Notes: generated by a model not told the origin, from the sequence alone. A stretch of 64,000 nt of DNA from Patescibacteria group bacterium (GCA_038063715.1 JBBTUO010000007.1:1540-65539), one strand, 5' to 3'. Shown: positions 4,981-56,776, counted from the first letter of the stretch. Made by a program: numbers and translations.

Positions 4981-4998
4981 AACCCTATTTTCTCTGTC

Positions 4999-5034
4999 TA
5001 CATAAATATTACGCTATAGCGTAATATTTATGTA
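4999..5034. repeat. Perfect 36-bp palindrome TACATAAATATTACGCTA|TAGCGTAATATTTATGTA (family core TACGCTATAGCGTA)
   Basis: Read directly from the sequence. Same core as the palindromes at 6964-7001 and 7589-7626. Confidence 0.85.
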
Positions 5035-5122
5035 TCTCCCTTTTTAAAAGGGCTGAATTGCAAGAAAATAAAATTAACATTCCGTCCATCAATCACATTG
5101 GTTAGTCTTTTCTTTCAAAACT

Positions 5123-6009: not shown

Positions 6010-6543
6010 ATGAAACGAAATGATAATGAATTCAGCTTGTTCCTTGATAACGCGATATTCGCCAAGTATACCCGGAATAACACCTTTGCTAGAAAAATAG
6101 AGTGTGATCAGGCCAATGTGAGCCGCTGGCGGAGAGGTCTTCTTTTTCCACCAATTGTAAAACTCCCTATCATCGCAAAGGTGCTCAAAATTAGCCTCAA
6201 AGAACTCACACGCTTGTGGAAAACGCAAAAATATCCTGGATCAGCCACTGCTCATGAAAAAGTATCTGGATCATGTAAAGTGAAAGCTCGCTTGCTTCTT
6301 CACTTCTACGATGGGGAAAAGTTTCTGGGCCAAACGTTTCCAGAAGTCGAGGTGGCAAGTTGGGACGACCTGCAACAAGTGGTGATTGAAACCTACCCAG
6401 GCACAAAACGGAACCTTGATGGTATTCCGACCAAATTCTCGGGTGTTCCGATCTTGCTTCAACTACCCTCGTTGCGTGAAGGCTACGGCCCCAACACGAC
6501 CGTTCGAGTAATGCAGGTAATTCCAATGTCAAACCAAAACTGA
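6010..6543 (+). CDS. XRE-like helix-turn-helix domain protein
   Basis: HTH-like segment FAKYTRNNTFARKIECDQANVSRWRRG. The ATG at 6010 is the likely start; the ORF track begins at 5944. Confidence 0.5.
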   Translation: MKRNDNEFSLFLDNAIFAKYTRNNTFARKIECDQANVSRWRRGLLFPPIVKLPIIAKVLKISLKELTRLWKTQKYPGSATAHEKVSGSCKVKARLLLHFYDGEKFLGQTFPEVEVASWDDLQQVVIETYPGTKRNLDGIPTKFSGVPILLQLPSLREGYGPNTTVRVMQVIPMSNQN

Positions 6544-6827: not shown

Positions 6828-6963
6828 GGTAAAAGTAAAACTAACAATAGGCGACCAGCAATGGCCGCCTTTTCTTTTATGCCGACAGAATGTACATCCC
6901 CCACTACACTCTATCTCCTGTTCCCTGTTCCTACCCCCTATCCACAGACCTCTATTTTCCTAC

Positions 6964-7001
6964 ATACATAAATCTTACGCTATAGCGTATAATTTATGTA
7001 T
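6964..7001. repeat. Imperfect ~38-bp palindrome ACATAAATCTTACGCTA|TAGCGTATAATTTATGT, overlapping the start codon of the downstream gene
   Basis: Core TACGCTATAGCGTATAATTT is identical to the downstream copy at 7601-7620. The ATG at 7000 lies in the right arm. Confidence 0.8.
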
Positions 7002-7566
7002 GGGAAAAATTGAAGAAGAATATCGCAAAAGACGCCGTAATGCCGAGATTCAGAAAGTTGTTCTTGGAACAATTGCGGTAGCGGGTGGTTTGAGCGTTTC
7101 CCTGCTGGCGCCGAATGCTCTGCAAGCATTAAAGATGCTTGGATTCAAAACAACTCGGCGAATTGAGTCAATAAAAGAAGCAAAAACGCGTCTGATCAGA
7201 GCTGGATTAATTTCTTACAACGGCAATGTTCTTTCACTGACGGCGAAAGGTGAAACAAAATTGTCCCTGCTGGAGCTAAATGAATATAAAATAAAAAAAC
7301 CGAAACGGTGGGACAAAAAATGGCGAGTTTTAATTTTTGATATCAGTGAGAGCAGAAAAACTTTGCGGGATAAGGTCAGAAGGACATTAATCGCCGTAGG
7401 TTTTATTCGACTTCAAGATAGCGTCTGGGTTTATCCCTATGACTGCGAAGATTTAATTGCTCTACTAAAGACTGATTTCAAAATCGGCAAGGAGTTGTTG
7501 TATATGATTGTCGACAGCATAGAAAACGACGAAATAATCAAAGAACAATTCGGCAGTATAAGTTAA
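7000..7566 (+). CDS. wHTH-like + Cas2/VapD-like domain protein (paralog 1), not in a CRISPR context
   Basis: 188 aa. The C-terminal half (KKWRVLIFDISESRKTLRDKVRRTLIAVGFIRLQDSVWVYPYDCEDLIALLK...LLYMIVD) resembles the Cas2 motif pattern (vLvvYDvs..krR.kv.k.L...G.RvQ.SVf.c.l). The N-terminal ~100 aa is basic and helix-rich (LLAPNAL...). The 295-aa ORF-track version, with its N-terminal extension through a terminator and palindrome, is rejected. Confidence 0.55.
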   Translation: MGKIEEEYRKRRRNAEIQKVVLGTIAVAGGLSVSLLAPNALQALKMLGFKTTRRIESIKEAKTRLIRAGLISYNGNVLSLTAKGETKLSLLELNEYKIKKPKRWDKKWRVLIFDISESRKTLRDKVRRTLIAVGFIRLQDSVWVYPYDCEDLIALLKTDFKIGKELLYMIVDSIENDEIIKEQFGSIS

Positions 7567-7588
7567 TATGAAAGCATCAAAAACCAAT

Positions 7589-7626
7589 ATACAGAAATTA
7601 TACGCTATAGCGTATAATTTCTGTAT
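7589..7626. repeat. Perfect 38-bp palindrome ATACAGAAATTATACGCTA|TAGCGTATAATTTCTGTAT
   Basis: Read directly. Third member of the TACGCTATAGCGTA family, 23 bp downstream of the wHTH-Cas2-like gene. Confidence 0.85.
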
Positions 7627-11652: not shown

Positions 11653-12402
11653 TTAGGTGACCAACGAACCGAGACTGCGACGAAGCATGGTTTTAGCAGT
11701 TCCCAAGCGCATATACACAGCAGTCTCGCCTCTCCCAACTCTCCGAGCAATATCCTGAACAGACAGCTCAGCCCAATAACGCCAGTAAACCACTTGCGAC
11801 AATGGCGCGGGGAGTTGCTCTACCGCTTCACGCACGAGCTCTGCAAACTCCGACCGAGACAGCTCCTCTAAGGGTGTGGGTGTTTCAGAATCCGGGCACT
11901 CTTTTCTGAACTGTCCAGAGTCGGGAGTAGTTATCGCATCATAACTAAGAGGATGATACACTCCGCCCAACAACTTCCACCGGGTCAGTGGGTCACAACC
12001 ATGCCGATCCACCACTTCTTCTAGCTTCACCTCCCGACCGTGCACCTCTGAAAGAACCCACCTTTCGTCCTCAAAACTCTGAAGCCTGGCGCAAAGCTCC
12101 TTAGGCATCGAGAAATTTGATCGAAGTTCTTCGATCAGAGCTCGGTGAATCACAACCGACGCCCACCCAGAAACATTATCGTTCAAGGCTGGCTTGTAAG
12201 ACGGAAGTGTTTTGTGCAACGCAATAGCGCCCGCAACCCACAAATCCTCAGCAGAGAGACCTCCGGGCAATTTGTCTGACCAGTGGCTCCGGAGAGCACT
12301 CACCTGAACATCTACCAGTGGTAGAAGTCTATAGAACAATTCGCCGTGAGCGAATGTCGCTTTGTCAAAAGAGAAAAAATCTGAAAACAGTCCTCCACGC
12401 AT
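11653..12402 (-). CDS. RNA polymerase sigma factor, sigma-70 family (FliA/SigF-like or ECF-like)
   Basis: Region-2-like segment (VSGWASVVIHRALIEELR) and a region-4 HTH (LSVQDIARRVGRGETAVYMRLGTAKTMLRRSL). The gene is markedly more GC-rich than its neighbours. A terminator on the minus strand lies at ~11610-11640. Confidence 0.7.
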   Translation of the reverse strand: MRGGLFSDFFSFDKATFAHGELFYRLLPLVDVQVSALRSHWSDKLPGGLSAEDLWVAGAIALHKTLPSYKPALNDNVSGWASVVIHRALIEELRSNFSMPKELCARLQSFEDERWVLSEVHGREVKLEEVVDRHGCDPLTRWKLLGGVYHPLSYDAITTPDSGQFRKECPDSETPTPLEELSRSEFAELVREAVEQLPAPLSQVVYWRYWAELSVQDIARRVGRGETAVYMRLGTAKTMLRRSLGSLVT

Positions 12403-17849: not shown

Positions 17850-17865
17850 CATCTGCGTAGCTCCC

Positions 17866-17906
17866 TGTATACGTTTATAATACACGACCGTGTATTATAA
17901 ACGTAT
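17866..17906. repeat. Perfect inverted repeat TATACGTTTATAATACACG-ac-CGTGTATTATAAACGTATA (19-bp arms)
   Basis: Read directly. Lies between two convergent genes. Confidence 0.8.
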
Positions 17907-18231: not shown

Positions 18232-18354
18232 TTAATTAATATACATTACATCATATATAGCAAAACATACCTTGCTGCCTATAAACTTTAGTTCAGTAAA
18301 GTAACCAAGATTATATTTTTTCTGTTTAAATTTTGAAATGCATGTATAAAAAAC

Positions 18355-19413
18355 TTATTCCTTCTTTGATTTTTCTATGCGCTCCTTTCGCTTGTACCAG
18401 CCAGCTTGTAATTTAACCTTATTTTCGTTTGCATAGGCTTCTGCTTTTCTAAACATCTCAAGTGCTTCGCCATTGCGTCCTCCATCTGAAAGTTCCGCAA
18501 AATCCTGAAAAAGCATCTCGAGATAATTCATAAACTTTCTATCGCGGCGTGCTTCAAAACCACCCGGGTGATCTGTGCCCTTGCCTGAATAGACTGTGGC
18601 GCTTGGAAATGTCTCTCCTATCGAATATAGTGCGGTAATCACAGTACCACCTCTATCCATCATGTCATCTGCAACAATAACTGTCGTTGTCGTTCCACCG
18701 GATTCACCTGCCTCAGAAACAGCTTTCTGATTTTCCTTATCAACCGCAATAACAAACGAATCTACGGAAAAAGAATTGTCCCCGTATCTCTCAACAATTT
18801 TTTTGACCAACTCTACATAAACACTTCCTCCGCTCAAAATGCCTCCAACTTTTGTGCCTTTTTGAAAAAACTTGTTTACGGCATTTATAGTCAGATCATT
18901 CGTGCCCCGTAAAAACTCGTCGAGCACATAACGCATTTCCTCTTGTGTGAGCTTGTGATTAGGTGTCTCTACCGACTTAGCTTTTTCGGCAACCCGAGCA
19001 AGCATATCATCTGTGGCGCGCAAAAGATTTTGTATCGAAAATTGCGGAGGGAGACCGTGTCCAGAACCAGCATCCTGCTCAGAATACTGACTAGATAGAC
19101 GTTTTGTACCCTCTACAAAAGAGGGGTCGACCGGAGACGGGGTATCCTCCAAAGACTGGGCCATAATTACGTTGGCCATTTGGGTAGACAATAGATGAGC
19201 CTCCTTCAAAACATTTTGACAAACAGCATAATCCTGCTCCGTCAGCGCCTCAGTTCTCAGCTTTCTTAAAACTCTAATCCCTTCTTGTAATTTTCTTTCG
19301 TTTTCCAACTTTAATTCGCGCTCTGCCTCAGAAAGCGCTGGTCGTTCCATTTTTTTAAAGCTTGTATGGCTACCGCCAAGCAACGCTTCGAAACCTCCTG
19401 AATTAAAAGACAT
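18355..19413 (-). CDS. Protein with C-terminal type I phosphoribosyltransferase-like domain
   Basis: A PRTase-type PRPP-binding motif (TTVIVADDMMDRGGTVITAL) in the C-terminal third. The N-terminal ~230 aa is unrecognised. Confidence 0.45.
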   Translation of the reverse strand: MSFNSGGFEALLGGSHTSFKKMERPALSEAERELKLENERKLQEGIRVLRKLRTEALTEQDYAVCQNVLKEAHLLSTQMANVIMAQSLEDTPSPVDPSFVEGTKRLSSQYSEQDAGSGHGLPPQFSIQNLLRATDDMLARVAEKAKSVETPNHKLTQEEMRYVLDEFLRGTNDLTINAVNKFFQKGTKVGGILSGGSVYVELVKKIVERYGDNSFSVDSFVIAVDKENQKAVSEAGESGGTTTTVIVADDMMDRGGTVITALYSIGETFPSATVYSGKGTDHPGGFEARRDRKFMNYLEMLFQDFAELSDGGRNGEALEMFRKAEAYANENKVKLQAGWYKRKERIEKSKKE

Positions 19414-19478
19414 AAAATTATATGCTTATATTAACAATTAGCGCATTTATGAACAAGGTTTCGCAGGTTTAGCAAATT

Positions 19479-19496
19479 ACTTTAGTTAACTAAAGT
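19479..19496. repeat. Perfect palindrome ACTTTAGTTAACTAAAGT (copy 1 of 3)
   Basis: Read directly. Lies in the purD / PRT-domain gene intergenic region. Confidence 0.8.
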
Positions 19497-19506
19497 GGAA
19501 AAATTT

Positions 19507-24295: not shown

Positions 24296-24826
24296 TAGCA
24301 AAATGTCGGGGAGGATTTCAATTTCGAGTACAGTTCGAGGCGGGAGTTCAATTTGTGACTAAGCTGTACAGTAGTACTGCGAAGGAGCAAATTGGGCTCC
24401 CAACGATGAAATGTGCCGAAATTGGAATCCGACAAAGAGAAAACCGCCTATGGGCGGTCTTTGTCGTTAGAACATGTTTACAAAATTCATCCGGTGATAA
24501 ATCCTGGGAACATGCTCTAAATTCAAATTGGCACAAAAGCGGTTTTAAGATAGGAGATCCTGTCTTGTTTACTTGATTTAGGTTTGAAAAATATAATCCG
24601 AAAGTGAGAAAAAATGAGAAAATATTTTCAAACGAAAAGCGAAACTGTCAGGGATCTCAAAATAGAGAGTAGATTCTCAAAGAACATTTATTGGGGAAGC
24701 ACATCTTCACACCAACGACTACTTCTCTATGAAATAGTATACACCCTATCAAGGACATGTAAAAGACATACCTGTGGATAACTCTATTTCTTTTTGTCCT
24801 TTATAAAAGACAGCCGTTTTGGGCCT

Positions 24827-25642
24827 CTATATAAGGCCATTGTCCGGTCGCGTTGAAATTTCTTTTTTAGTTTCTGAGTCTAATCTTTTCGCTTCCGCCC
24901 ACGCAAGCTCATAAATTTTTTTCATTGCGTCGGCAATTTCTTCGCTTTCAATAATAATCCCGAGCTTCTCTCGCCACGACGCGATCATCACTTTGTTATC
25001 GTAGATATTTATTTCTGGAGAAAAATAATATTTCTCCGATGACACAAGTGCGGTTTCTCGTTTCTCATCTTTGTCCTGTTTTTTTCGTTCTCGCCCAATA
25101 GTTGTTTCCGGAACAATTGCACGAATTGAGATATTTTTCTCCGCTCTCTGTTTGTAATACTTCGGGAAATAGTTGGGGAGTGCTTTATGCATGTCATCTA
25201 CATTTGCATAGGCCCGAATAGGCTCGGAGCTCGTCAAAGTATCTTCATATACGTATTCAAGACCATCTGTTCCCTCGTAAAATCGGATCTTTGGGCGATT
25301 TTCAAGAGAGTAGAGAACATTCAGCTCCGGCAATATTTTTTCTGACTGTTTAATAAAGCCTTCGGTCTGTGAAATTTGCCGTTTCAAATATTCTGTAACG
25401 GCCGTTGGTGGTTCAGGTGCATATTCCTGCTTTGGCTCCTTCCCAGACACGCTGGCCAACTTTTTACTAACTAAAGAGCCGAGAATATCGTAGCCGGTAG
25501 TGCGATTTATCCCTGCCTTGAGTGAAATCTTGGAAACCGTCGCCCTTCCAAGTTCGAGTAGGGCAATATAGACATCAACTTCTTTTTCGCTAAAACCAAA
25601 TGACTGAAGGTTGATTTTTAGTTGGGTGTATTTCTGTTCCAT
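24827..25642 (-). CDS. TrmB-family transcriptional regulator (paralog 3)
   Basis: N-terminal wHTH FGFSEKEVDVYIALLELGRATVSKISLKAGINRTTGYDILGSLVSKKL. The C-terminus (EEIADAMKKIYELAWAEAKRL) is shared with the remnant at 28093-28190. Confidence 0.7.
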   Translation of the reverse strand: MEQKYTQLKINLQSFGFSEKEVDVYIALLELGRATVSKISLKAGINRTTGYDILGSLVSKKLASVSGKEPKQEYAPEPPTAVTEYLKRQISQTEGFIKQSEKILPELNVLYSLENRPKIRFYEGTDGLEYVYEDTLTSSEPIRAYANVDDMHKALPNYFPKYYKQRAEKNISIRAIVPETTIGRERKKQDKDEKRETALVSSEKYYFSPEINIYDNKVMIASWREKLGIIIESEEIADAMKKIYELAWAEAKRLDSETKKEISTRPDNGLI

Positions 25643-25978: not shown

Positions 25979-27232
25979 GTGCTCTCCGCTATGAAAAACA
26001 TCTTCCCGAACGTCCCCGCCTCCCTTCCAAGAAAAAGTGAATTGCCTCCGAACGGCACATGTCGCATGATCTGGAAGTGGAGCTACCCCGCCACAAGAAT
26101 GAGGGAAACGGTTGTAATCAAGGGAGAGGTTGTAAAAAAACTTCTTACCCTCGACCTCAACATTCCCGAATCCGGGTTTGCAACAAAAGTGAACAATGCA
26201 TCGCTCGCTGATGCAAAGAACATTTTTGTCGCAAACTACCCGTGCCCACACAAGTGTCCGGGCTGTTTCAACAACGCTGAGCTCCACAATCCAATCCTTA
26301 CCTTGGAAGAGATTTGGGGTATTGTGGACCAGGCGCTGGAACTCGGTCTCGAATCGGTAAAGTTTCTTGGGCCAGGCGAACTTCTCGCCAACCCTGAGAT
26401 CTTCACGGTTCTTGACGGGTTCCGCAGACGGAACATCGTGGTCGGCATCTTCACCAAGGGAGCAATAATGGGAAATGATGTGCTTGCATATCATTACCAT
26501 GGGATGAGTTCGGAAGAATTCACTCGCAAGCTCGTGTCATACCCGAATATGACATTCCTTGTTGGGGGCCGGTCATTCGACCCCCACTTCGAGAACCTCT
26601 TCATTCCGAGGAATGAAAGGCAGATCGATGTGAAGTTCGACTACCACGCTGCGCGCGGACTCGCTATTGAGCGACTTTGCAAATCTGGAATGAATGCTGA
26701 CCTTGAGAAACCTAGGCTGGCAATCATCTGTAGTCCAGTGACTTCCCAAAACATTGGTTGCGTGGGTGAGATATACAAATGGGGTGCCGAAAGGAACATC
26801 CCTGTGTATCTTCCACCAACGATGGTATCTGGGAAAGGCCATAAACTGGTGAAAAGTGCTTCGGACAAAAAATTCGAGGATGACTACATCAAATTGGCCG
26901 CCGATGTTTACACTTGGGCGATTGAGCGGGGAGTTATGACCCTCGAACAATTCGAACAAGAGGGGCCACATCCCTACATCGGAGTTGCACCCTGCAACCA
27001 GCTCACTCACGGCCTCTACGTTCACTACGACGGAGCGGTGTGGCGTTGCCCCGGTAACGACACACCCGACTTCGTGGTAAATGAGAACATCCGCAACACA
27101 CCTCTCGTTGAAATCTGGCGTGGTAGCAAAAACTACCGCATCAACAAATTCAACAACGGATGTGTGAAGGATGACATCTCGCTACCTCGCCGGTTTTATC
27201 GCGAGGTGAAGGACAAGGTTCAACGGCAGTAG
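25979..27232 (+). CDS. Radical SAM protein with Cys-rich C-terminal (SPASM/twitch-like) region
   Basis: Canonical CxxxCxxC (NYPCPHKCPGC). Six further Cys in the C-terminal half (CSPVTSQNIGC, APCNQ, WRCPGN, NGCVKDD). GC content is higher than flanking DNA. The start may be at 25991 (MKNIF). Confidence 0.7.
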   Translation: MLSAMKNIFPNVPASLPRKSELPPNGTCRMIWKWSYPATRMRETVVIKGEVVKKLLTLDLNIPESGFATKVNNASLADAKNIFVANYPCPHKCPGCFNNAELHNPILTLEEIWGIVDQALELGLESVKFLGPGELLANPEIFTVLDGFRRRNIVVGIFTKGAIMGNDVLAYHYHGMSSEEFTRKLVSYPNMTFLVGGRSFDPHFENLFIPRNERQIDVKFDYHAARGLAIERLCKSGMNADLEKPRLAIICSPVTSQNIGCVGEIYKWGAERNIPVYLPPTMVSGKGHKLVKSASDKKFEDDYIKLAADVYTWAIERGVMTLEQFEQEGPHPYIGVAPCNQLTHGLYVHYDGAVWRCPGNDTPDFVVNENIRNTPLVEIWRGSKNYRINKFNNGCVKDDISLPRRFYREVKDKVQRQ

Positions 27233-27270
27233 TTCTGCCACACGCTCTGGAGAATAGCGTCCAACTCCAA

Positions 27271-27300
27271 CCTCGCAAGCAATTGCGAGGTTTTTCTTTT
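27271..27300 (+). terminator. Rho-independent terminator after the radical SAM gene
   Basis: CCTCGCAA-gcaa-TTGCGAGG followed by TTTTTCTTTT. Confidence 0.7.
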
Positions 27301-27303
27301 GCC

Positions 27304-27388
27304 CAGTTTTGCCCGCGCTACTCCGTGGTCGCAACAACTGAGGCCGTCGCACATACCTCTTTATCCATGGTTCGACGCAACTTGATCA
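27304..27388 (+). repeat. ~85-bp double-hairpin repeat, copy A (diverged)
   Basis: TTTTGCCCGCGCTACTCCGTGGTCGCAACAACTGAGGCCGTCGCAC...CGACGCAACTTGA. Aligns with copies at 29215-29300, 29366-29410, 34950-35010 and 42725-42815 (reverse orientation). Confidence 0.7.
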
Positions 27389-27396
27389 GAACCATT

Positions 27397-27416
27397 TACT
27401 TTAGTTAACTAAAGTA
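27397..27416. repeat. Perfect palindrome TACTTTAGTTAACTAAAGTA (copy 2 of 3)
   Basis: Read directly. Confidence 0.8.
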
Positions 27417-27564
27417 TCCGTAAAGAAGTTTTATTCAACATTAAAAACTAAAAGTATTCTTGTTACGAACTTGATAATTTTTTTAAAAAATTAATTTTCA
27501 AAATCAAAATAGAAAAAGAAGAGCCCGTCGCTTGTGTGCGACGGGCTTTGTGAAAGTTCACGGA

Positions 27565-28017
27565 TCAACTTGCCGGAGGGGAGACCGGAACAACGAGCGG
27601 AACCGGGAGACAAGCGCCCAGGAAATTGTCACTGGGATTAAGCAGGCGGCGAAGAACGAAACCGTGAGAGATAATTGCGCCATCGGCACAGGGCACTGTG
27701 CCCGCCTGGCCATTGGGACACAAACTTTCGATGATATCCATGGCGCCACCCTCGTTCAGCGCCTTGGCCGAGGCTAACCAAACTACACCGTTGGTGGTGA
27801 CCACGACCAAAAGGCCAGCGTCTACGTTCCAGCAGCCGAGGGCGCTGGAAGAGATTTGGCCACCATCGGTAAGGCGAGCGCCAGCCATTTTCATGACGGG
27901 CAAGCCGGTGACGTTGACAAAACCGAGAGGTGCCAAAAGGTCCTCTCCTAACAAGGTGCTGTGTGTGCTCATAAGTGCGTGGGGGGGGGTAACAGGTTTA
28001 TCTGATTGTCCGAGCAA
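27565..28017 (-). CDS. Hypothetical Gly/Ala/Val-rich protein with several Cys, in a GC-rich insert (coding strand uncertain)
   Basis: 150-aa ORF, probably starting at the internal MSTHS. Convergent with the radical SAM gene. A competing 113-aa ORF on the plus strand (27698..28039). Composition is unlike the surrounding genome. Confidence 0.3.
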   Translation of the reverse strand: MLGQSDKPVTPPHALMSTHSTLLGEDLLAPLGFVNVTGLPVMKMAGARLTDGGQISSSALGCWNVDAGLLVVVTTNGVVWLASAKALNEGGAMDIIESLCPNGQAGTVPCADGAIISHGFVLRRLLNPSDNFLGACLPVPLVVPVSPPAS

Positions 28018-28092
28018 TTCGAACTATTTTCGAGTCTAACATATTTTAAACTCACTGTCAAGTAAAACTATGGAATAGGGCTTTCCTAGATA

Positions 28093-28190
28093 GAATTTAT
28101 CTTGAGCCCTTGTCCAACCTTTTCGCCTCCGTCCACGCCAATTCGTAAATTTTTTTCATCGCGTCAGCGATCCACTAGCTCTCAATTTGG
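28093..28190 (-). pseudogene. 3' remnant of a TrmB-family regulator gene
   Basis: The minus strand encodes ...IADAMKKIYELAWTEAKRLDKGSR*, preceded by an in-frame stop. It is nearly identical at the DNA level to the 3' end of the gene at 24827-25642 (TTTTCGCCTCCGTCCACGCCAATTCGTAAATTTTTTTCATCGCGTC). Confidence 0.55.
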
Positions 28191-28257
28191 AAAAATGTCG
28201 CAATCTATTGGAAATTTTGTAGCGTGTCATTCCACACACATTTGATATACTTTTTTA

Positions 28258-29130
28258 ATGAATACAAAAAACTATTTCGTAGCTCCGACAATTGCATTGC
28301 TTATATCCCTCTCTTTCTGGTTCACCGCCAATACCGCCAACGCCACCGTCGGTGGACCAACTTTCGTCCACTCTTTTTCCTACAATCCTGCCGATGAATC
28401 TGTGTACTACATTATGAACTCGCAGAACGGACGGGGTTGCCCACCCGAATTACTCAAACTCTCTTTGGCTTCAAATACTTCTCAAGTAGTGTACTCGTGC
28501 GACGAGGGCGAGAGTTTGATCCAAAACACCAACTACGATTTTGCACCCGTGAACGCCAAAATCAGCGACATCACGGAGGGATACAAACGTCTCATCCCAA
28601 TACATTTAAAAAATAATAATATTTCTGTCAGCGTTGATTTCCATGGGCTCGAGAATATTTCTCCGGAGGTCAGCGAGATAAAGAATGCGAAGTTTACCGT
28701 AAATATCTCTCAAGACAACAAAAAGCTCGCACCCATCCCCATCGTAGGCTGTAACAACGACCAACCCTTCACCCTTGCCGGCTATGCCATACCTGGATTT
28801 GAGAAAAAAATAATTATCCTCCTATCTACAAAAGGTGATTGCTGGGAAGGTGGCTATATTCGCGAAAGTCTCCATGTTGTCGGAGGAATAAGCGACTTGG
28901 ATAAAAATTACACCACCAACTACTACAAAGAAGCGTCCGCGCTGGTACCGAACGAAGGCACCTTAGTGGTCTCAGCCTCGGATGAATCTTCACCAAATCC
29001 TATTGCAACGAACACTCATGATACAGAGACGCCTCGTGAAAACGCCTCCGGTAACAGTATTTTATTTACTCTTGCGATTATTGTCTCTTTGATAATTGGC
29101 GGTGTGATCGGAAAGCGATACCTAAAATAA
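28258..29130 (+). CDS. Hypothetical secreted protein with N-terminal signal peptide and C-terminal TM anchor
   Basis: 290 aa. Hydrophobic N-terminus (VAPTIALLISLSFWFTANTANA). C-terminal ILFTLAIIVSLIIGGVIGKRYLK. Asn/Ser-rich. Confidence 0.5.
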   Translation: MNTKNYFVAPTIALLISLSFWFTANTANATVGGPTFVHSFSYNPADESVYYIMNSQNGRGCPPELLKLSLASNTSQVVYSCDEGESLIQNTNYDFAPVNAKISDITEGYKRLIPIHLKNNNISVSVDFHGLENISPEVSEIKNAKFTVNISQDNKKLAPIPIVGCNNDQPFTLAGYAIPGFEKKIIILLSTKGDCWEGGYIRESLHVVGGISDLDKNYTTNYYKEASALVPNEGTLVVSASDESSPNPIATNTHDTETPRENASGNSILFTLAIIVSLIIGGVIGKRYLK

Positions 29131-29152
29131 ATTTCACTGGTATTTTAACCCA

Positions 29153-29182
29153 CCAGCTACTTTAGTTAACTAAAGTAGCTGG
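29153..29182. repeat. Perfect 30-bp palindrome CCAGCTACTTTAGTTAACTAAAGTAGCTGG (copy 3 of 3)
   Basis: Read directly. Begins 23 bp after the stop of the upstream gene. Confidence 0.85.
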
Positions 29183-29214
29183 GGAATGAGTTTGTATTTA
29201 TTTTTTCCCGACTT

Positions 29215-29300
29215 TCCCAATTTTGCCCACGGTACTCCGTGGTTGCAACAATTGCGGACGTCGCACCCCTCTGTTTCCGCAGCGCGACGCAAACTTGAGA
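29215..29300 (+). repeat. ~85-bp double-hairpin repeat, copy B (best-preserved)
   Basis: CCCAATTTTGCCCACGGTACTCCGTGGTTGCAACAATTGCGGACGTCGCACCCCTCTGTTTCCGCAGCGCGACGCAAACTTGAGAG. Hairpin 1 is CCACGG-tact-CCGTGG. Hairpin 2 is GACGTCGC...GCGCGACG. Confidence 0.8.
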
Positions 29301-29365
29301 GAGCCCTGAGCAACTTAGGAAACAAGAAGCACCCCTTCGAGTATCACGAAGCGTGTACCCTTGTG

Positions 29366-29410
29366 GTGCAATTTTGCCCACGGTACCCCGTGGTTGCCAC
29401 AATTGATCCC
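29366..29410 (+). repeat. Partial copy (hairpin-1 half) of the ~85-bp repeat, copy B'
   Basis: GCAATTTTGCCCACGGTACCCCGTGGTTGCCACAATTGATCCC. Confidence 0.7.
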
Positions 29411-29530
29411 AGTTTTGTTTGCGAGCTTTGCCGTCATGCGACGACAGCTCGCCGATAGGAATCGGGCGGTTGTGAGTATCTACAAAACCTGAGGAGGCGA
29501 GTAATCTCGACGTGAACTAATTCGCACTAA

Positions 29531-30325
29531 CTACTTAATGTCTATTAGGACGGGGCAATGATCCGAACCCATGACTTCGGGGAGGATTTCAGCGGATTTG
29601 AGGCGGGGAAGGAGAGCGGGAGAAATCAGGACGTAGTCGATACGCCAGCCAACGTTGCGAGCGCGGGCGTTGGCAAAATGCGACCACCAGGTGTAGTGGC
29701 CATTGCCTTTTTTGAATTGACGAAAGGTGTCGATAAATCCGGCGTCAATAAATGCCTGAAAACCGGCCCGTTCTTCTTTGGTAAACCCCTTCAAACCTTC
29801 GTTTTCCTTTGGCCGAGCCAAATCATCCGGCGTGTGAGCGACATTTAAGTCGCCGCAGAAAATGACAGGCTTTTTCTTTTCCAAAAATTTACAATAGGCC
29901 AAAAATACCGGGTCCCATTGCTTGTGGCGAAGGGGGATTCGGCTTAAATCATCTTTCGCGTTCGGAGTATAAACCGTAACAACATAAAAATCTTTATACT
30001 CGGCGGCGATCACTCGGCCTTCGGTCAGTGGATCACCGTATTTGTCCGCGCCAAGTTTACATTTTTTGATAATCGCCTCAGGAAAACCATTTATAACTGA
30101 AAGCGGTTTTTCTTTGGTAAAAATCGCCGTTCCGGAATAACCTTTTTTCTCGGCGGAGTTCCAGTATTCAGTATATTCGGCCAAATCCACCTCCGACTGG
30201 TGCTCCTGCGCCTTTGTTTCCTGCAAACACAAAATATCCGGCTGATATTTTTCGATAAACGGCACAAAAAGCCCTTTTTTGTGCACCGCGCGAATGCCGT
30301 TGACGTTCCATGAGATGAGTTTCAT
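29531..30325 (-). CDS. xth: Exodeoxyribonuclease III (AP endonuclease, Xth family)
   Basis: MKLISWNVNGIRA...LCLQETK...DLNVAHT...WWSHFANARARNVGWRIDYVL...GSDHCPV are the EEP-family catalytic motifs. Confidence 0.9.
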   Translation of the reverse strand: MKLISWNVNGIRAVHKKGLFVPFIEKYQPDILCLQETKAQEHQSEVDLAEYTEYWNSAEKKGYSGTAIFTKEKPLSVINGFPEAIIKKCKLGADKYGDPLTEGRVIAAEYKDFYVVTVYTPNAKDDLSRIPLRHKQWDPVFLAYCKFLEKKKPVIFCGDLNVAHTPDDLARPKENEGLKGFTKEERAGFQAFIDAGFIDTFRQFKKGNGHYTWWSHFANARARNVGWRIDYVLISPALLPRLKSAEILPEVMGSDHCPVLIDIK

Positions 30326-32217: not shown

Positions 32218-32393
32218 TGTGTTTCTTGGACTGAATGGGGGTTTGGGCCCATCGAACCGTTTTTGGGACGGCCGACGTTTTCATGGTTCCAAGTCAGAAA
32301 TAATGACGGATTATTTCTGATGTAGACACTATAACAAATTCCGGCTTATGTCAATTAAGCGTACGTGTTTTTGCAATAAACTCTCCAAGCTAT

Positions 32394-32439
32394 CCATATA
32401 CAGATATTACATGCGGTCGTGTATAATAGCTGTATATGG
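32394..32439. repeat. Palindromic element CCATATACAG...CATGCGGTCG...CTGTATATGG overlapping the start codon of the downstream gene
   Basis: Perfect 10-bp outer arms (CCATATACAG / CTGTATATGG). The inner core shares CATGCGGTCG with the downstream element at 33089-33126. The ATG at 32436 lies inside the right arm. Confidence 0.75.
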
Positions 32440-33002
32440 GAAATCTTGAAAAAGATTCGCGAAGACGAACGCGCAAAGGAAATATTGAGCGGGCCGTTCT
32501 CAACACCGTTGCGGCGGCGGGAGTGTTGAGTGTTGCACTGCTTGCCCCCAACGCACTCAAAATGCTTGGGGTAAAAAACTGGGCCGGATGGAGCCGACAA
32601 AAAGAGGGGGTGGCGGAAGCGAGAAAGCGACTGATAAAAAATGGTTTGCTGGAATATAAAAATAATTCCCTGATGGTAACCGTAAAAGGGGAAGCGAAGT
32701 TGCGACATCTTGAACTGCTGAATTTCAGATATCCAAAACCGAAGCGATGGGACAAAAAGTGGCGCCTGCTAATTTTTGATATTGCTGAGAGTAAACGAAT
32801 ATTGAGAGATAAAGTCAGATTAACTTTGCAAGCAATTGGTTTTGTAAAACTGCAACACAGTGTTTGGGCATATCCCTATAATTGCGAAGACCTGATTGCG
32901 CTTTTGAAAACCGATTTTCGTGTCGGCACTGATCTCTTGTACATCATTGCCGACAACGTTGAAAACGACGCGGTGTTGAAAAAATATTTTGGGTTGCAGT
33001 AA
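32436..33002 (+). CDS. wHTH-like + Cas2/VapD-like domain protein (paralog 2)
   Basis: Clear paralog of 7000-7566 (LLAPNAL, KRWDKKWRLLIFDIAESKRILRDKVRLTLQAIGFVKLQHSVWAYPYNCEDLIALLKTDF). Confidence 0.55.
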   Translation: MGNLEKDSRRRTRKGNIERAVLNTVAAAGVLSVALLAPNALKMLGVKNWAGWSRQKEGVAEARKRLIKNGLLEYKNNSLMVTVKGEAKLRHLELLNFRYPKPKRWDKKWRLLIFDIAESKRILRDKVRLTLQAIGFVKLQHSVWAYPYNCEDLIALLKTDFRVGTDLLYIIADNVENDAVLKKYFGLQ

Positions 33003-33256: not shown

Positions 33257-34174
33257 TTACCGTTTGCGATTATGGAAATTCTTATGAATCTCCCGCAGGC
33301 GGCTATCGGTAATATGCGTGTAAATCTGAGTGGTATTGATACTGGCGTGGCCGAGTAGCATTTGGACCGAGCGGATATCGGCGCCGTTAGAAAGAAGATC
33401 GGTGGCAAAGCAGTGGCGAATTACGTGTGGCGTCACTTTTTTGGAAATACCGGCCACAATCGCATAGTGCTTCACAAGCCTTTCTACTGATCGGCGAGTC
33501 AATCGCAAATCTTTTTTCGATGCCGGATCAACGCTTACCTGCACAAAAAGAGCGTCATCGACATCAGTGCGCTTGGCAACATACTGCTTGAGCGCCTGAC
33601 GAGCCGAGTCCGAAAGAAAGACCACCCGCACTTTTTCGCCCTTGCCTCGCACCGAAAATTCATCAGAACGCAGATCGAGGTCACGCGATAGGGAACAGAG
33701 CTCGGATACGCGGAGACCGGTTGAAAACAAAAGCTCCATGATAGCCCGATCACGAAGTGATTTTATGTCATCACCTTTCGGTGCATCCATCAATCTTCGC
33801 AGTTCATTTCCCGAAATGAGATCGAGTGCACGCTCAGAAGTTTTTGCCAGCTCAATATGTTCTGGCGAAATGGTTTTCACATCACGCTTAGCCAAATATT
33901 TCAAAAAAGCTCGCAAGGCGATTAGATAATAATTTTGGGTTTTCTTCTTGAGCGTGTCGCCGGTCGGCTTGTTGTTGCCGGTCGATTGGCGGTTGAGCCA
34001 GAGGCGATATTCGCGCAAAAGTTCATCCGTAATCTTGGCCGGATCGGTAATTTTGGCAAAAACTAGAAACCGCTTCAAGTAGTGGTCGTAATTTTCCACC
34101 GTTTTTACGCTTCGACCACGTTCGATTTCAATATATTCCAAAAATTCTTGTTTGAGAATCTTGAGGTCTTTCAT
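33257..34174 (-). CDS. Tyrosine recombinase, XerC/XerD / phage-integrase family
   Basis: N-terminal SAM-like domain (EFLEYIEIERGRSVKTVENYDHYLKRF). C-terminal catalytic residues in context (HVIRHCFATDLL, LLGHASINTTQIYTH). Confidence 0.85.
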   Translation of the reverse strand: MKDLKILKQEFLEYIEIERGRSVKTVENYDHYLKRFLVFAKITDPAKITDELLREYRLWLNRQSTGNNKPTGDTLKKKTQNYYLIALRAFLKYLAKRDVKTISPEHIELAKTSERALDLISGNELRRLMDAPKGDDIKSLRDRAIMELLFSTGLRVSELCSLSRDLDLRSDEFSVRGKGEKVRVVFLSDSARQALKQYVAKRTDVDDALFVQVSVDPASKKDLRLTRRSVERLVKHYAIVAGISKKVTPHVIRHCFATDLLSNGADIRSVQMLLGHASINTTQIYTHITDSRLREIHKNFHNRKR

Positions 34175-34341: not shown

Positions 34342-34890
34342 ATGATCCTGCCTTTTCAGGAACCCGCCACTACAGACAACACCGCCATGAGCACACAAAC
34401 CGCCGCAAAAACAGCCTCCCAGACCAAAAACCAGACGAAAGCCGCGCTCCTCGAGCAGATCGCGAGGCTGACCGCCGACCTCGGGACCGCGCAGAAAACC
34501 GTCACGGACACCAACACGCGGGTCCGCGAACTCGAGGCCTCGAATCGGGAACAGTATGCCGAGAATCGCCGGCTGACGGATGATCTCAAGCTCCAGACCA
34601 AAAAGTTCGAGGATCAGGCGAAACGCCACGCTGCCTGTCACGAACGGACGGCCATTCAACTCGCCGCGGGCCGCGCCGAGCAAGAGGGCGCCGCGAACGC
34701 GTTCAGTCGCTCGCTCGAAGTCGTCATCGCGAACCTGGGCAAGAAGGCGTCGTCGCCCAAGAGTAGCCTGTTCGGCGAGATGCCGGCGGGACTCGCACTC
34801 CTGATGAGCATGGCGGAAAGCGGCCCTTCGGCTGAAGACGCCTTCGCCGACCTGCGCCGGCATCTCGAGACCGCCGGTGGCGGCCACTAA
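34342..34890 (+). CDS. Hypothetical coiled-coil protein (GC-rich gene)
   Basis: 182-aa ORF with K/E/Q/A-rich heptad-like composition. Followed by a strong terminator. The antisense ORF 34270..34887 has R-rich nonsense composition and is rejected. The start may be the internal Met at ~34387. Confidence 0.4.
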   Translation: MILPFQEPATTDNTAMSTQTAAKTASQTKNQTKAALLEQIARLTADLGTAQKTVTDTNTRVRELEASNREQYAENRRLTDDLKLQTKKFEDQAKRHAACHERTAIQLAAGRAEQEGAANAFSRSLEVVIANLGKKASSPKSSLFGEMPAGLALLMSMAESGPSAEDAFADLRRHLETAGGGH

Positions 34891-34916
34891 GCCGACGACA
34901 ACCTACAAACCTCACA

Positions 34917-34950
34917 GCCGCTCGACGCACGTCGAGCGGCTTTTTCTTCT
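34917..34950 (+). terminator. Rho-independent terminator
   Basis: GCCGCTCGACG-cac-GTCGAGCGGC followed by TTTTTCTTCT. Confidence 0.7.
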
Positions 34951-35010
34951 CAATTTTTCTCACGGTACCCCGTGACTGAAAAATTGAGGACATCGCGCTT
35001 ACCGACTTCA
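34950..35010 (+). repeat. ~85-bp double-hairpin repeat, copy C (diverged)
   Basis: CAATTTTTCTCACGGTACCCCGTGACTGAAAAATTGAGGACATCGCGC...GCGATGCAAACT. Confidence 0.6.
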
Positions 35011-35115
35011 TACCTGGTGCGATGCAAACTAATTAGCTTTTAATCCTTTTAATTTTGTCGAAAGAAAAATGCCAGTTCCGGATTGCTCCGCGCTGGCATT
35101 TGAGAAGGAAATAGG

Positions 35116-39639: not shown

Positions 39640-39725
39640 TAATTTCTAAATTATAATTTCTAATTTCTAAAAACCCTAGGATCATTTGGAAATTTCATTA
39701 GATATTAGGACTTAGAAAGTAGAAA
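39640..39725. repeat. AT-rich intergenic element with inverted termini (AATTTCTAAATTATAATTTCTAATTTCTAAA ... TTAGAAAGTAGAAATTTAT)
   Basis: The left 30 nt is identical to the copy at 41072-41105. Right halves are similar. Related copies at ~4335-4420, ~46370-46410, ~57215-57300 and ~9140-9180. Confidence 0.7.
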
Positions 39726-41069: not shown

Positions 41070-41155
41070 CTTTATTAATTTCTAAATTATAATTTCTAAT
41101 TTCTAAACCGGAGTCAAATTCGAATTTTATTAGACATTAGTAATTAGAAATTTAT
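41070..41155. repeat. AT-rich intergenic element, copy near-identical to 39640-39725
   Basis: ATTAATTTCTAAATTATAATTTCTAATTTCTAAA...TATTAGACATTAGTAATTAGAAATTTAT. Confidence 0.7.
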
Positions 41156-41158
41156 CCC

Positions 41159-42709
41159 ATGTCTTTTTCAAAAGTCTACAGCGCCCAAACCACACTCTTA
41201 TCGGCGCAAATTATTACCGTTGAAGTAGATCTATCAAAAGGTCTACATTCTTTTTCGATAGTTGGGCTTCCAGACAAGGGGGTGGAAGAATCGCGTGATC
41301 GGGTGTCGGCCGCTATCAAAAACTCCGGGCTACAGTCTCCGAAACAAAAGAATCAGAAAATAACTGTTTCACTAGCTCCCGCTGACGTCAAAAAGGAGGG
41401 GCCGATTTTTGATTTAGCAATTGCGCTCGCCTACATACATGCCACTGAAGAGAATCGTTTTGAGGCTGAGGGGAAAATTTTTCTCGGAGAGCTCTCACTT
41501 GATGGAAAATTACGAAGAATAAATGGTGTGCTTCCTCTAGCCCGTCGTGCACGAGATGCCGGTTTCACAGAAATATACGTTCCGGAGGAAAATGCTCGTG
41601 AGGCCGCCCTGATAGAGGGAATAAAAGTTTTTGGTGTTAAAAGTCTTGAACAAGTATTGAACCATCTCGAAACACAAGCGCAACCTGACCATGTCGGTAA
41701 AATGATAGCGCATCAAGAAAAAACAGCTCCAAGCAAAAAATCAGAATCATACGAAGTAGATTTTTCAGATATAAAAGGTCAGGAGACGGCAAAAAGAGGG
41801 TTGGAAATTGCTGCGGCTGGTGGGCACAATATCGCAATGTTCGGACCACCGGGCACCGGCAAGACAATGCTTGCCAAAGCCTTCCGTCACATTATGCCGC
41901 CACTTTCTTTTGAAAAAATTCTTGATGTGACGGCAATACATTCCGTTGCCGGGATTCTAAAAGGGGATATGCTCGCTGAACCACCACTTCGATCACCTCA
42001 CCACACAGCGTCCTATGTTTCACTTGTTGGAGGAGGAACTATACCGAAACCAGGAGAGGTTACTTTGGCTCACCATGGCATATTATTTTTAGATGAATTC
42101 GCAGAATTCGAGCGACGAGCGATTGATGCTTTGCGCGAACCACTTGAGGAGCGAGTGATGAGTGTGTCTCGAGCACGCGGGACAGTACAATTTCCAGCAC
42201 GATTTACTTTGATTGCCGCCATGAATCCGTGTCCTTGTGGTAACCACGGCTCAACTGAAAAACACTGCGTGTGCAGTCCGATAATACTGAAACGATACAA
42301 AGATAAAATTTCTGGACCAATTATCGATCGAATCGACATCTGGCTTGAAGTGCCAAGAATTTCGCATCAAACTTTGTCGGCCAAATCTGGAATTGAAACC
42401 ACAGATGAGGTACGAAAACGAGTCATCAAAGCCAGAGAGATTCAAGAAAAAAGATTTAAAAATCATAAGCGCGCAATTGATACCAACAGCGACATGAATG
42501 CGCGTGACATCAGCAACTTGATCGGGCTCGATGAAAAAGTTACAAAAACTTTAAATACATCGGCCGAACGCCTCGGACTGTCCGGCCGAGCCTATCACCG
42601 TGTCATCAAGCTCGCCCGCACCATCGCCGACCTCGACGGCGCGGAAAATATAAATGAGTCTCATGTACTAGAAGCGATTCAATATCGTCCAAGGCAGTTG
42701 ACACAGTAG
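41159..42709 (+). CDS. comM: YifB/ComM-family Mg-chelatase-like AAA+ ATPase
   Basis: N-terminal Lon-protease-like/ChlI architecture. Walker A GPPGTGKTM. Downstream C4 zinc motif (CPCGNHGSTEKHCVC). 516 aa. Confidence 0.85.
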   Translation: MSFSKVYSAQTTLLSAQIITVEVDLSKGLHSFSIVGLPDKGVEESRDRVSAAIKNSGLQSPKQKNQKITVSLAPADVKKEGPIFDLAIALAYIHATEENRFEAEGKIFLGELSLDGKLRRINGVLPLARRARDAGFTEIYVPEENAREAALIEGIKVFGVKSLEQVLNHLETQAQPDHVGKMIAHQEKTAPSKKSESYEVDFSDIKGQETAKRGLEIAAAGGHNIAMFGPPGTGKTMLAKAFRHIMPPLSFEKILDVTAIHSVAGILKGDMLAEPPLRSPHHTASYVSLVGGGTIPKPGEVTLAHHGILFLDEFAEFERRAIDALREPLEERVMSVSRARGTVQFPARFTLIAAMNPCPCGNHGSTEKHCVCSPIILKRYKDKISGPIIDRIDIWLEVPRISHQTLSAKSGIETTDEVRKRVIKAREIQEKRFKNHKRAIDTNSDMNARDISNLIGLDEKVTKTLNTSAERLGLSGRAYHRVIKLARTIADLDGAENINESHVLEAIQYRPRQLTQ

Positions 42710-42724: not shown

Positions 42725-42815
42725 CAAAATGGGTTTACGTCGCGCTGCGGCAACAGAGGAGGCGCGACGTCCTCAATTGTTGCAACCGCGGAGTACCGTG
42801 GGCAAAATTGGGAAC
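42725..42815 (-). repeat. ~85-bp double-hairpin repeat, copy D (reverse orientation)
   Basis: The reverse complement is GTTCCCAATTTTGCCCACGGTACTCCGCGGTTGCAACAATTGAGGACGTCGCGCCTCCTCTGTTGCCGCAGCGCGACGTAAACCC, about 90% identical to copy B. Confidence 0.8.
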
Positions 42816-42903
42816 AAAAACCGCCCGGCTTTCGGGGGTTTTATTCTTAAATCCTAAATCTAAAATCTTGAATCCGAATCCGTTTTAGTACACCCTTGGC
42901 GTA

Positions 42904-43896
42904 CTAAAACGGATTCTTGGCTCCTCGAACCTCAAAGTGTAAGTGCGCCCCCGTCGACTTACCCGTAGAACCAACGTAACCGATTACCTGACCTTGGAAA
43001 ACATCCTGACCCTGATTCGCAATATTTGCGCTCATATGAGAATAAAGAGTTTGAGTTCCATTTGGATGCGCAATAACGACATACTCTCCGTAACCACCGT
43101 TCCAGCCATAATTTTTACTTACAATGACAGTACCCGCGGCAGCGGCCATAATCGGAGTACCATTTGGCGCGCCGAGGTCAATTCCGTTGTAACCATGTAG
43201 ACCCTGTGTTCTAACATAAGCCGCGAGAGGCGCTCGATAATAACCTGAATAATTTGGACCTCCCGCTCCTCGAAGCTTGCTCGTCGGCTGAGAAACTTTC
43301 GGAGTAGCAATTTCTCCATCGGGAATAATGAGGGTGCTACCGACAGCCAAAGGTGAATCGGCTTTCAAAGCATTGAACTGAATGATTTCATTTGCATCAG
43401 CCTTGTACTTGATGGCAATAGTCTTAATAGTATCCCCAGTCTTAACTGTGTACTGTAAACCCGAAATAGGGAGGATAACGAGCTGATCACCTGGTCGCAA
43501 AGTGCTTGCGCTCACGTCATTGGCCCACATCACCGTACTAACCGAAACACCGAACATCTTGGCAATCTGAGAAAGAGTGTCGCCTTTGCGTACTACATAG
43601 ATACTAATCTGATCTGAGTGGCTTTCTTCAATATCAACCATAGTACCGGAAGGTCCTGATTCAGGAAGAAGGGCACTGTCAGCAACAACAGTAATATCAC
43701 CCCCACCTTTGGCCAAAATTTTGTTAGGGTTTAGAGTTGCCTGGGGTAGAACAATATTTTGAGATGTAACTACAGAAGCCACCTGTGCAGCCTCAACCTT
43801 GCCCAAAAACAAGCCAGACATCACCGATAAAATGCTAGCCTGAGCAAGGGAAGGCATGGTAAGTGTAACCACAGCAATTAGGAGCCTTGTATACAA
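42904..43896 (-). CDS. M23-family metallopeptidase with two LysM domains
   Basis: LysM repeats (YVVRKGDTLSQIAKMFGVSVSTVMWAN, YTVKTGDTIKTIAIKYKADANEII). M23 motifs (HGYNGIDLGAP..., GSTGKSTGAHLHFEV). Confidence 0.8.
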   Translation of the reverse strand: MYTRLLIAVVTLTMPSLAQASILSVMSGLFLGKVEAAQVASVVTSQNIVLPQATLNPNKILAKGGGDITVVADSALLPESGPSGTMVDIEESHSDQISIYVVRKGDTLSQIAKMFGVSVSTVMWANDVSASTLRPGDQLVILPISGLQYTVKTGDTIKTIAIKYKADANEIIQFNALKADSPLAVGSTLIIPDGEIATPKVSQPTSKLRGAGGPNYSGYYRAPLAAYVRTQGLHGYNGIDLGAPNGTPIMAAAAGTVIVSKNYGWNGGYGEYVVIAHPNGTQTLYSHMSANIANQGQDVFQGQVIGYVGSTGKSTGAHLHFEVRGAKNPF

Positions 43897-56654: not shown

Positions 56655-56775
56655 ATTATACGAAAATACGAATGAAGACGAATATACGAACATATACGAA
56701 AGGGGAAGGGGTGCGAGATTCATTTTTCGTGACCATTTCGTATATTCGTACAATTCGTATTTTCGTATATTAATT
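56655..56775. promoter_or_regulatory. Large inverted repeat of TACGAA / TTCGTA repeats around a G-rich centre (AGGGGAAGGGGTGCG)
   Basis: Left arm ATTATACGAAAATACGAATGAAGACGAATATACGAACATATACGAA. Right arm TTTTTCGTGACCATTTCGTATATTCGTACAATTCGTATTTTCGTATATTAAT. Related elements lie upstream of 58094 and 61119. Confidence 0.6.
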
Positions 56776-56776
56776 T

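Follow-up and report, generated by a model that had tools for sequence, protein, structure and literature searches.

The 64-kb stretch of DNA analysed here (hereafter the window) carries, beyond the 3' ends of several genes, copies of a small double-hairpin unit, which raises the question of what this unit is and how it came to lie there. Patescibacteria (CPR) genomes are tiny and are not known to carry much repetitive or mobile DNA, so a structured repeat family found across Taylorbacteria species is useful to characterize, and we know of no earlier description of this one. A sequence-only reading of the window had counted five copies and proposed either a REP/BIME-like element or a small RNA family. 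All five are present at essentially the positions that it gave, and we added a sixth (C'), so that the family, to which we refer by the working name R1, has six copies in the window, all of them within 16 kb and each unit measuring ~85-110 nt (Table 1). We built a covariance model from four of the copies; with it, A, B, D and E score 88-99 bits and C scores 37.5 bits. Beyond copies A to E, it finds no further significant match in the 64-kb window and no copy in the ~9 kb past the window's end (L011). A 27-nt core, allowing three mismatches or fewer, matches the window three times, against 0.00 expected from 100 shuffles.

Several details of the earlier description required revision. The pair of copies said to be about 90% identical proved to be B and E (29214-29296 and 42731-42814; 90.5%) rather than B and D, which share only 67% identity, and the other pairs in the window range from 66 to 75%. 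Copy D ends at 35031 and not at 35010. The reported half copy, C, does consist of hairpin 1 only, but a full variant that follows it directly, C', had been missed. This variant keeps the basal stem of the other copies (CCCAGTTTTG...CAAAACCTGAGGA), has the tip of hairpin 1 swapped for an insert of ~55 nt, and carries the second hairpin GGCGAG-TAAT-CTCGAC followed by GTGAAC. The copies, which had been described as higher in GC than their host background, have a GC content of 0.46-0.60, against 0.443 for the window.

Table 1. Positions of R1 copies, the terminators beside them and related features. Unless a locus is named, positions are those of the window; R1 scores are from the covariance model.
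Feature	Position	Strand	Basis
Possible decayed R1 relic	24296-24436	-	alignment; weak evidence; ortholog of the L009/L006 site
Intrinsic terminator of rSAM/SPASM gene (25979-27232)	27269-27292	+	terminator scan, sequence; T tract ends at copy A start
Copy A, both hairpins	27300-27384	+	R1, 98.4 bits; alignments
T-rich leader before copy B, 31 nt	29183-29213	+	sequence, alignment
Copy B	29214-29296	+	R1, 98.7 bits; folds
Copy B, hairpin 1	29215-29258	+	folding
Copy B, hairpin 2	29259-29289	+	folding
Spacer and 5' extension before copy C	29316-29364	+	alignment with L018 4965-5046 copy
Copy C, hairpin 1 alone	29365-29405	+	R1, 37.5 bits
Copy C', variant subfamily	29408-29515	+	directly after C; alignments, folds
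Intrinsic terminator of 182-aa gene (34342-34890)	34916-34941	+	terminator scan; immediately before copy D
Copy D, most diverged	34947-35031	+	R1, 88.3 bits; pair table; RNA fold z = -6.47
Copy E	42731-42814	-	R1, 98.9 bits
Two-way terminator of M23/LysM peptidase gene (42904-43896, -)	42815-42845, stem 42821-42838	-	terminator scan, sequence
L009 (GCA_005804565.1) copy	989-1073
L006 (Taylorbacteria GCA_016188455.1) copy, diverged	1576-1660
L017 copy	6151-6219
L018 copies	4965-5046 and 4522-4594
L019 (Taylorbacteria RIFCSPLOWO2_01_FULL_45_34b) copy	5053-5128

Reading frames stay open across copies of the repeat, hairpin 1 being open in most of the six frames. A 42-aa 'gene' has been called over copy E in a metagenome assembly (L002 3246-3374), and a 90-aa frame over B and C (window 29186-29458, +) gives misleading matches to TPR proteins at E = 1e-38. 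We rejected these matches as a chance likeness, at 16/33 positions, to one TPR_12 unit, multiplied by the 9-14 repeats of such proteins; against 1.84 billion representatives the 90-aa frame retrieves only itself and large TPR proteins, and a concatenated six-frame peptide query of the repeat found no match in a protein search. Repeats like R1 break assemblies and create spurious small ORFs in the annotation of metagenome-assembled genomes.

All copies fold alike, as RNA or as DNA, with z scores mostly between -3 and -8 (for copy B, -3.05 as RNA and -4.04 as DNA). Hairpin 1 is more than the CCACGG/CCGTGG pairing described: it is an 18-bp stem that begins at TTCCCAATTTTGCCCACGG and closes with CCGTGG-TT-GCAA(C)AATTG-A-GGA, its 3' side carrying a conserved bulge of 2 nt, in full 5'-TTCCCAATTTTGC-CCACGG-tact-CCGTGG-tt-GCAA(c)AATTG-a-GGA-3'. 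The base of this stem (TTCCCARTTTTG ... CAAAA(Y)YTGAGGA) is nearly invariant across genomes, and in its tip and in the whole of hairpin 2 the sequence is free while pairing is kept. Hairpin 2 has a stem of 8-10 bp and a loop of 4-19 nt, and is followed by a short tail, GYRAAC. A role for GAGGA in Shine-Dalgarno/anti-Shine-Dalgarno pairing was considered and dropped, as this motif pairs with the 5' TTCCC at the base of hairpin 1.

The sequence-only reading had made compensatory changes in the hairpins a test of the family, and these are plentiful. RNAalifold places 26 pairs on four window copies, five of them with compensatory changes, and copy D has such changes in both hairpins. When 11 copies drawn from six genomes are aligned, pairing holds in 95.2% of cells, and both sides have changed in 15 of the 26 pairs, counts to be read with the caveat that the alignment was fitted to the model; none of 500 shuffles reaches the observed level, and slid partners give four such pairs at most. 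The L006 copy has its inner stem wholly replaced (CTCCGA/TCGGAG, with an 8-nt loop) on a basal stem that is kept. As judged from these alignments, the structure of R1 is under selection. Elsewhere in L006, a perfect 48-nt palindrome (12190-12237; CCCCACGGTACCCAACTGGGGCG/CGCCCCAGTTGGGTACCGTGGGG) lies in an enlarged comM/M23 spacer of 866 nt and shares CCACGGTACC with hairpin 1.

Stable, conserved folds that covary might be expected of small RNAs transcribed from genes of their own, for which the pyrimidine-rich CCUCU in the hairpin 2 loop of several copies could also speak. However, G-U and A-C mismatches are nearly equal in number (5 and 4), so neither strand is favoured as RNA, and hairpin 2 varies, its loop included (L017, L019 and L006). 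No promoter-like site was seen upstream of any copy on either strand, in the scan list or in the flanks read by eye, and the copies start at the end of a terminator and have no terminator after the unit. At gathering thresholds, Rfam finds only four tRNAs in the window and nothing at R1, and at E values up to 10 nothing above noise overlaps the copies in 27000-29700. The small RNA family that had been proposed thus has no positive support, given that no Rfam relative and no promoter-like site were found and that copies begin past a terminator, and we consider this explanation very improbable.

The position of R1 is its most distinctive property. At seven of ten loci (A, D, E, L009, L006, L017 and the L018 4522 copy), the start of the unit lies 6-11 nt beyond an intrinsic terminator stem, at the end of the T tract and on the same strand. 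With terminator-like sites numbering 30 over 16.2 kb, such placement has a binomial tail of 1.4e-13, or of 7.5e-8 if the calculation is restricted to an assumed 15% of intergenic DNA. The three exceptions are copy B, which follows the T-rich leader, the L018 4965 copy, which has a 5' extension, and the L019 copy, which has no terminator upstream. The left flank is always T-rich and contains no fixed 4-5-mer. The claim that copies lie directly downstream of intrinsic terminators thus holds for A (the radical SAM gene) and D (the 182-aa gene) but not as worded for B and E. Because the hairpin before B (29153-29182) has no direct T tract and is followed only by the 31-nt leader, it is not a textbook terminator, and it corresponds to a separate palindromic repeat. 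Copy E, which had been tied to a terminator of comM, lies between the comM stop codon and the two-way terminator of the M23/LysM gene and is co-oriented with the latter, whose minus-strand T tract (TTTTTGTT) abuts it. Most copies lie between converging genes. Copy A is situated between the rSAM terminator and the facing terminator of a 135-aa gene (27547-27522), and from this position between two facing terminators it is probably untranscribed, or outside any mRNA. Neither R1 hairpin is followed by a consistent T tract or appears in the terminator scan, so R1 is not itself a terminator.

The palindrome before copy B belongs to a second repeat family in the window, a 26-30-nt palindrome TACTTTAGTTAACTAAAGTA found at 18278-18303, 19472-19497, 27391-27416 and 29152-29177. 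Its copies bracket the gene at 18355-19413 and the two-gene block at 27565-29130; one of them lies 7 nt after copy A.

Strict placement and orientation at terminators, together with a preference for the space between converging genes, are also what would be expected of a host cis-acting module coupled to termination and working as structured DNA or as read-through RNA, for example by insulating converging genes from each other or serving as a back-up block between them, by protecting 3' ends as a structure, or by binding a conserved host protein. This is the main rival to the reading that we prefer, and we regard it as unlikely, if plausible. Strong covariation fits it, and so does a hairpin 1 base that is almost invariant between genomes whose coding DNA is only 64-81% identical; near-identity of hairpin 1 and structure-preserving evolution are equally expected under it. 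However, only a few terminators carry R1, and strong terminators nearby are without it (31343-31304, 30888-30848, 36894-36870, 30410-30387 and 27547-27522). In addition, neither hairpin has the consistent U tract, and copy A and the L018 4965-5046 copy lie between two terminators, where little transcription is expected.

Comparison with other genomes bears on the same issue. Additional copies, the other test that had been set for the family, were found beyond the window: five further related genomes carry R1, at non-orthologous sites (L009, L006, L017, L018 and L019). A strict exact-pattern scan of genomes in public collections had no match, and a looser one added three R1 genomes. A pattern scan of metagenomes matched only the window's own organism, and two R1 patterns run on viral contigs and BLAST searches of phages and plasmids returned nothing; one match to a structure-style pattern in viral sequence was rejected as chance, since it apparently falls within coding sequence. 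Within the collections searched, R1 appears confined to a clade of Candidatus Taylorbacteria (Patescibacteria/CPR). The window's ComM-like protein (41159-42709) is identical on CAYHIP010000002.1 (86 kb, from the metagenome-assembled genome GCA_964356825.1) and on Hainich H41 groundwater contigs, and the homologues nearest to it carry the annotation Patescibacteria group or Candidatus Taylorbacteria, which places the window in a CPR genome, Taylorbacteria-like in kind.

The L009 copy is 83-92% identical to the window copies, against 64-81% for the coding DNA of the two genomes. Copies within the window differ among themselves (66-90% identity) as much as copies of different genomes do, so nothing points to a recent burst. 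One orthologous site is occupied in both L009 and L006, after the terminator of a conserved non-coding stretch beside the gene for the CCA-adding enzyme, a pattern compatible with long vertical retention. The host-module explanation can draw on this orthologous copy, which both genomes keep and in which the L006 stem is fully re-paired. At the corresponding site in the window there is a possible decayed relic with the same upstream terminator, a similar spacer length and scraps of similarity (TTCCAATTTCGGCAC), at which the R1 model has no match.

The non-coding stretch itself is a candidate ncRNA. It is conserved over ~300 nt (window 24437-24808, -; L009 1072-1447; L006 1710-1963), lies between the genes for the CCA-adding enzyme and a TrmB-like protein, and is 69-79% identical in the two relatives. 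It has a DnaA-box-like TTATCCACA, the promoter-like TTGATA/TATACT and its own terminator, with no conserved ORF and no Rfam match; RNAalifold gives 45 pairs, 4 of them compensatory.

Presence and absence differ between relatives at sites that are otherwise syntenic. Gene order around comM is conserved, and in six relatives (L029, L006, L008, L020, L009 and L022), whose ComM proteins are 88-79% identical to that of the window, the comM/M23 spacer has no R1. In L029 the 3' UTR and terminator of the M23 gene can be aligned to the window as far as the T tract, after which there is no R1. Neither a clean empty site at nucleotide resolution nor a transposition event was found; the nearest relative available (ComM 88%) aligns on the terminator side only. 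Three of the four window loci adjoin lineage-specific genes, namely the rSAM gene, the pair encoding 135-aa and 290-aa proteins, and the pair encoding 182-aa and 116-aa proteins, none of which relatives have at their syntenic loci; core genes are the only neighbours of copy E and of the L009 copy. R1 marks places of gene gain and loss in otherwise syntenic genomes. The orthologous terminators without R1 in six relatives count against a host module.

The window holds several other repeats and variable features. A family of 43-nt palindromes (ATACATAAAT.TTACGCTATAGCGTAA..TTTATGTAT) occurs at 4993-5035, 6959-7001, 7584-7626, 17864-17906 and 32393-32435, and since most of them adjoin genes for TrmB-like or PaaX_M-like regulators, they may be operators. 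The PaaX_M-like proteins include two paralogues of 188 aa (7000-7566 and 32436-33002) with homologues in relatives, one of which has a borderline Cas2 match (24.7 bits; cutoff 24.5). A 75-nt stretch of a TrmB-like gene (24878-24952) recurs with 77% identity at 28112-28186, where it separates the 135-aa gene from the 290-aa gene and may represent part of a paralogue that has decayed. An AT-rich repeat, TAATTTCTAAATTATAATTTCTAATTTCTAAA, is 100% identical at 39640-39671 and 41076-41107, and intergenic runs of the TTCGTATATTCGTA type (37473, 44354, 56736 and 58051) are common to L018 at 91% identity. Type IV secretion-like genes (PrgI, TraC/VirB4 and a TraG-type P-loop protein; window ~56700-59900, L011 4625-7762) are situated a few kb away from the origin region (rnpA-yidC-jag / dnaA-dnaN), with dnaA and dnaN ~2.6 kb past the right end of the window.

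R1 also shows features typical of a selfish repeat: one copy is halved, another has a hairpin tip carrying the 55-nt insert, and there are tandem copies, a chimera and the possible relic. The spacer before C (TTAGGAAACAAGAAGCACCC...TGTGGTG, also given as TTAGGAAACAAGAAG...TGTGGTG) recurs before the L018 4965-5046 copy, as does the last part of the leader of B (TTTTCCCGACTTT; TTTTCYCGACTTT). The gene upstream of that L018 copy encodes DAHP synthase and the one upstream of B a 290-aa protein, and the two proteins are unrelated. This recurrence after an unrelated gene indicates that the arrangement of B, spacer and C is itself a repeated composite unit. The C' variant recurs at L018 4522-4594 with a short tip (88.6% identity to L018 4544-4587). 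The L019 copy joins hairpin 1 to a 49-nt module and two REP-like palindromes; these modules are also found on the flanks of a RAYT-like gene that lies 1.1 kb from this R1 copy. Half, tandem and chimeric copies count against a host module as well, and overall a host cis-element is an equally good account of cross-species conservation and covariation but leaves the patchy distribution and the broken copies unexplained. As an observation in its own right, the two R1 units at L018 4522-5046 are inverted, lie ~370 nt apart and flank a 78-aa glutaredoxin gene with its own promoter-like site and terminator, a layout that resembles a composite element.

A tyrosine recombinase (33257-34174) is encoded within the cluster, and on one reading R1 would be a folded recombination site like attC, carried on small cassettes of gene, terminator and R1 and acted on by this Xer-type enzyme. 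R1 does resemble attC in lying at the 3' end of genes in their own orientation, in its link with variable genes at three of the four window loci, and in having an imperfect hairpin whose base is fixed, whose tip varies and in which one strand has unpaired bases. Yet the recombinase, the only tyrosine recombinase present, is of the ordinary XerC/XerD/XerA type (1.4e-73 to TIGR02225; 134 bits to the integron integrase model, whose cutoff is 265), and it is syntenic in L009. No integron integrase, attI site or contiguous array was found, the copies are interleaved on both strands with core genes (S15, PNPase and comM), and copy E and the L009 copy have core genes only as neighbours. The base of the stem, by eye, reads TCCCAAT/ATTGAGGA, that is AAT/ATT in place of the RYYYAAC/GTTRRRY R boxes of attC. 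With a recombinase that is Xer-like and copies that form no array, the integron interpretation was rejected, and we regard an attC-like site as improbable.

A RAYT-like (HUH/Y1) transposase is the only candidate enzyme seen in the clade, and it has no direct link to R1. The L019 gene matches Pfam Y1_Tnp at 3.9e-6 and, below the model cutoff, the NCBIfam REP-associated tyrosine transposase; its protein has more than 500 homologues, and those with source names are from Patescibacteria. However, the RAYT genes of L019, L023 and L026 are flanked by other hairpins (GAAGGTCTAACCTTC, GGAAGTCTGACTTCC and CCGAGCATCTGATTCTCGG) that are unlike either R1 hairpin, the R1 model finds no copy at the other two Taylorbacteria RAYT loci, and tblastn finds no RAYT gene in the 86-kb contig or at other R1 loci. 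No transposase was found in the 86-kb contig. As RAYTs have REPs of their own, have no R1 at those loci and are absent from the window, their link to R1 is circumstantial, and with an ordinary, syntenic Xer enzyme no enzyme is tied to R1. The RAYT loci are classic REP-RAYT arrangements: a Y1 transposase-like gene of ~230 aa lies with its REPs at L019 3171-3942, L023 9935-10710 and L026 9925-10745, and the RAYT-like gene stands at a conserved place upstream of gapdh in two Taylorbacteria lineages, with flanking REPs that are genome-specific.

The explanation that fits these observations best, and to which we assign about an even chance, is that R1 is a non-autonomous, REP/BIME-like mosaic repeat inserted beside terminators by an enzyme acting in trans. 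A mobile or recombining unit accounts for multiple copies, non-orthologous sites, absence at an orthologous terminator and broken or chimeric copies, and also for the ties to variable genes and the position outside predicted transcripts. Copying or insertion would place R1 units in a single orientation against the 3' edge of terminator T tracts, a position at which they would harm no gene. From the strict T-tract position and orientation we infer that the terminator hairpin is read during insertion, probably as single-stranded DNA, and the likeliest route would be recognition of folded single-stranded DNA, comprising the hairpins of element and terminator, by the enzyme in trans. Copies may then diverge with their pairing kept and recombine into tandem, truncated and mosaic arrays, as BIMEs do, and they would come to mark the plastic spots of an otherwise syntenic and very compact genome. 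In more general terms, the strict siting at terminator ends points to a terminator-reading targeting mechanism or to an accessory element of termination or insulation. As a tentative and rather doubtful specification of these two options, R1 could be a new kind of terminator-homing element, a tiny non-autonomous unit driven by a CPR enzyme that would recognize its folded hairpin jointly with the terminator hairpin and T tract of the host and so bring it to transcript ends in one orientation, or a conserved, structured module bound by a core CPR protein that reinforces or insulates terminators in ultra-compact genomes.

Among known systems, the REP/BIME elements of Proteobacteria are closest. 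Like R1, they are extragenic, lie after gene 3' ends or between converging genes, conserve pairing, form mosaic and tandem arrangements with short modules, lack terminal inverted repeats and target duplications, and have RAYT-like genes in the same clade. The proposal of a REP/BIME-like element accordingly stands as far as it describes an extragenic, structured and interspersed repeat with mosaic, tandem and truncated forms and presence/absence differences, but membership of the REP/RAYT system proper does not follow. A REP unit is a palindrome of ~20-40 nt, often in inverted pairs, whereas R1 comprises 85-110 nt with two unlike hairpins and no inverted pair of the same hairpin within any unit. 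REPs number tens to hundreds of extragenic copies per genome; R1 has six in the 64 kb of the one contig covered here. No cognate RAYT gene flanked by R1 hairpins was found in the 86-kb contig or at the other loci read, and R1 further differs in having a sequence common across species and a precise siting at terminator T tracts.

Class C group II introns share the target. They reportedly (Robart et al. 2007) insert just after intrinsic terminators in the terminator's orientation, as R1 does, and R1 could in principle be the remnant of a larger terminator-homing retroelement of this kind. The geometry of hairpin 1 is that of intron domain V, with a lower stem of 9 bp, a bulge of 2 nt on the 3' side, and an upper stem of 6 bp capped by a tetraloop. 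However, this likeness is one of geometry only, as the AGC catalytic triad is absent from hairpin 1; R1, at ~85 nt, has no ribozyme domains and no Rfam group II intron match even at E values up to 10, its single 5' boundary in all copies is unlike random 5' truncation, and no reverse transcriptase is encoded in any locus fetched. We hold this origin to be extremely improbable. The attC-like site, the independent small RNA and the intron remnant are each contradicted by specific tests.

ERIC, Correia, RUP and BOX elements and MITEs are likewise small, non-coding, multi-copy, structured and intergenic, with differences between strains, and we know of none among them that begins exactly at terminator T tracts in one orientation. 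The MITEs (DDE-derived) have terminal inverted repeats and target duplications, whereas the ends of R1 (TTCCCAATTTTG... and ...GCGACGCAAAC) are not inverted copies of each other and its flanks contain no direct duplication. IS200/IS605-derived PATEs have two similar subterminal hairpins, depend on one TnpA and insert 3' of a fixed tetra- or pentanucleotide; the R1 hairpins are unlike each other in both length and sequence, the second one is not conserved between genomes, and no fixed 4-5-mer flanks the unit. As a small structured extragenic repeat, then, R1 is of a known kind, and its siting at the terminator edge and its two-hairpin architecture make it a new form of that kind.
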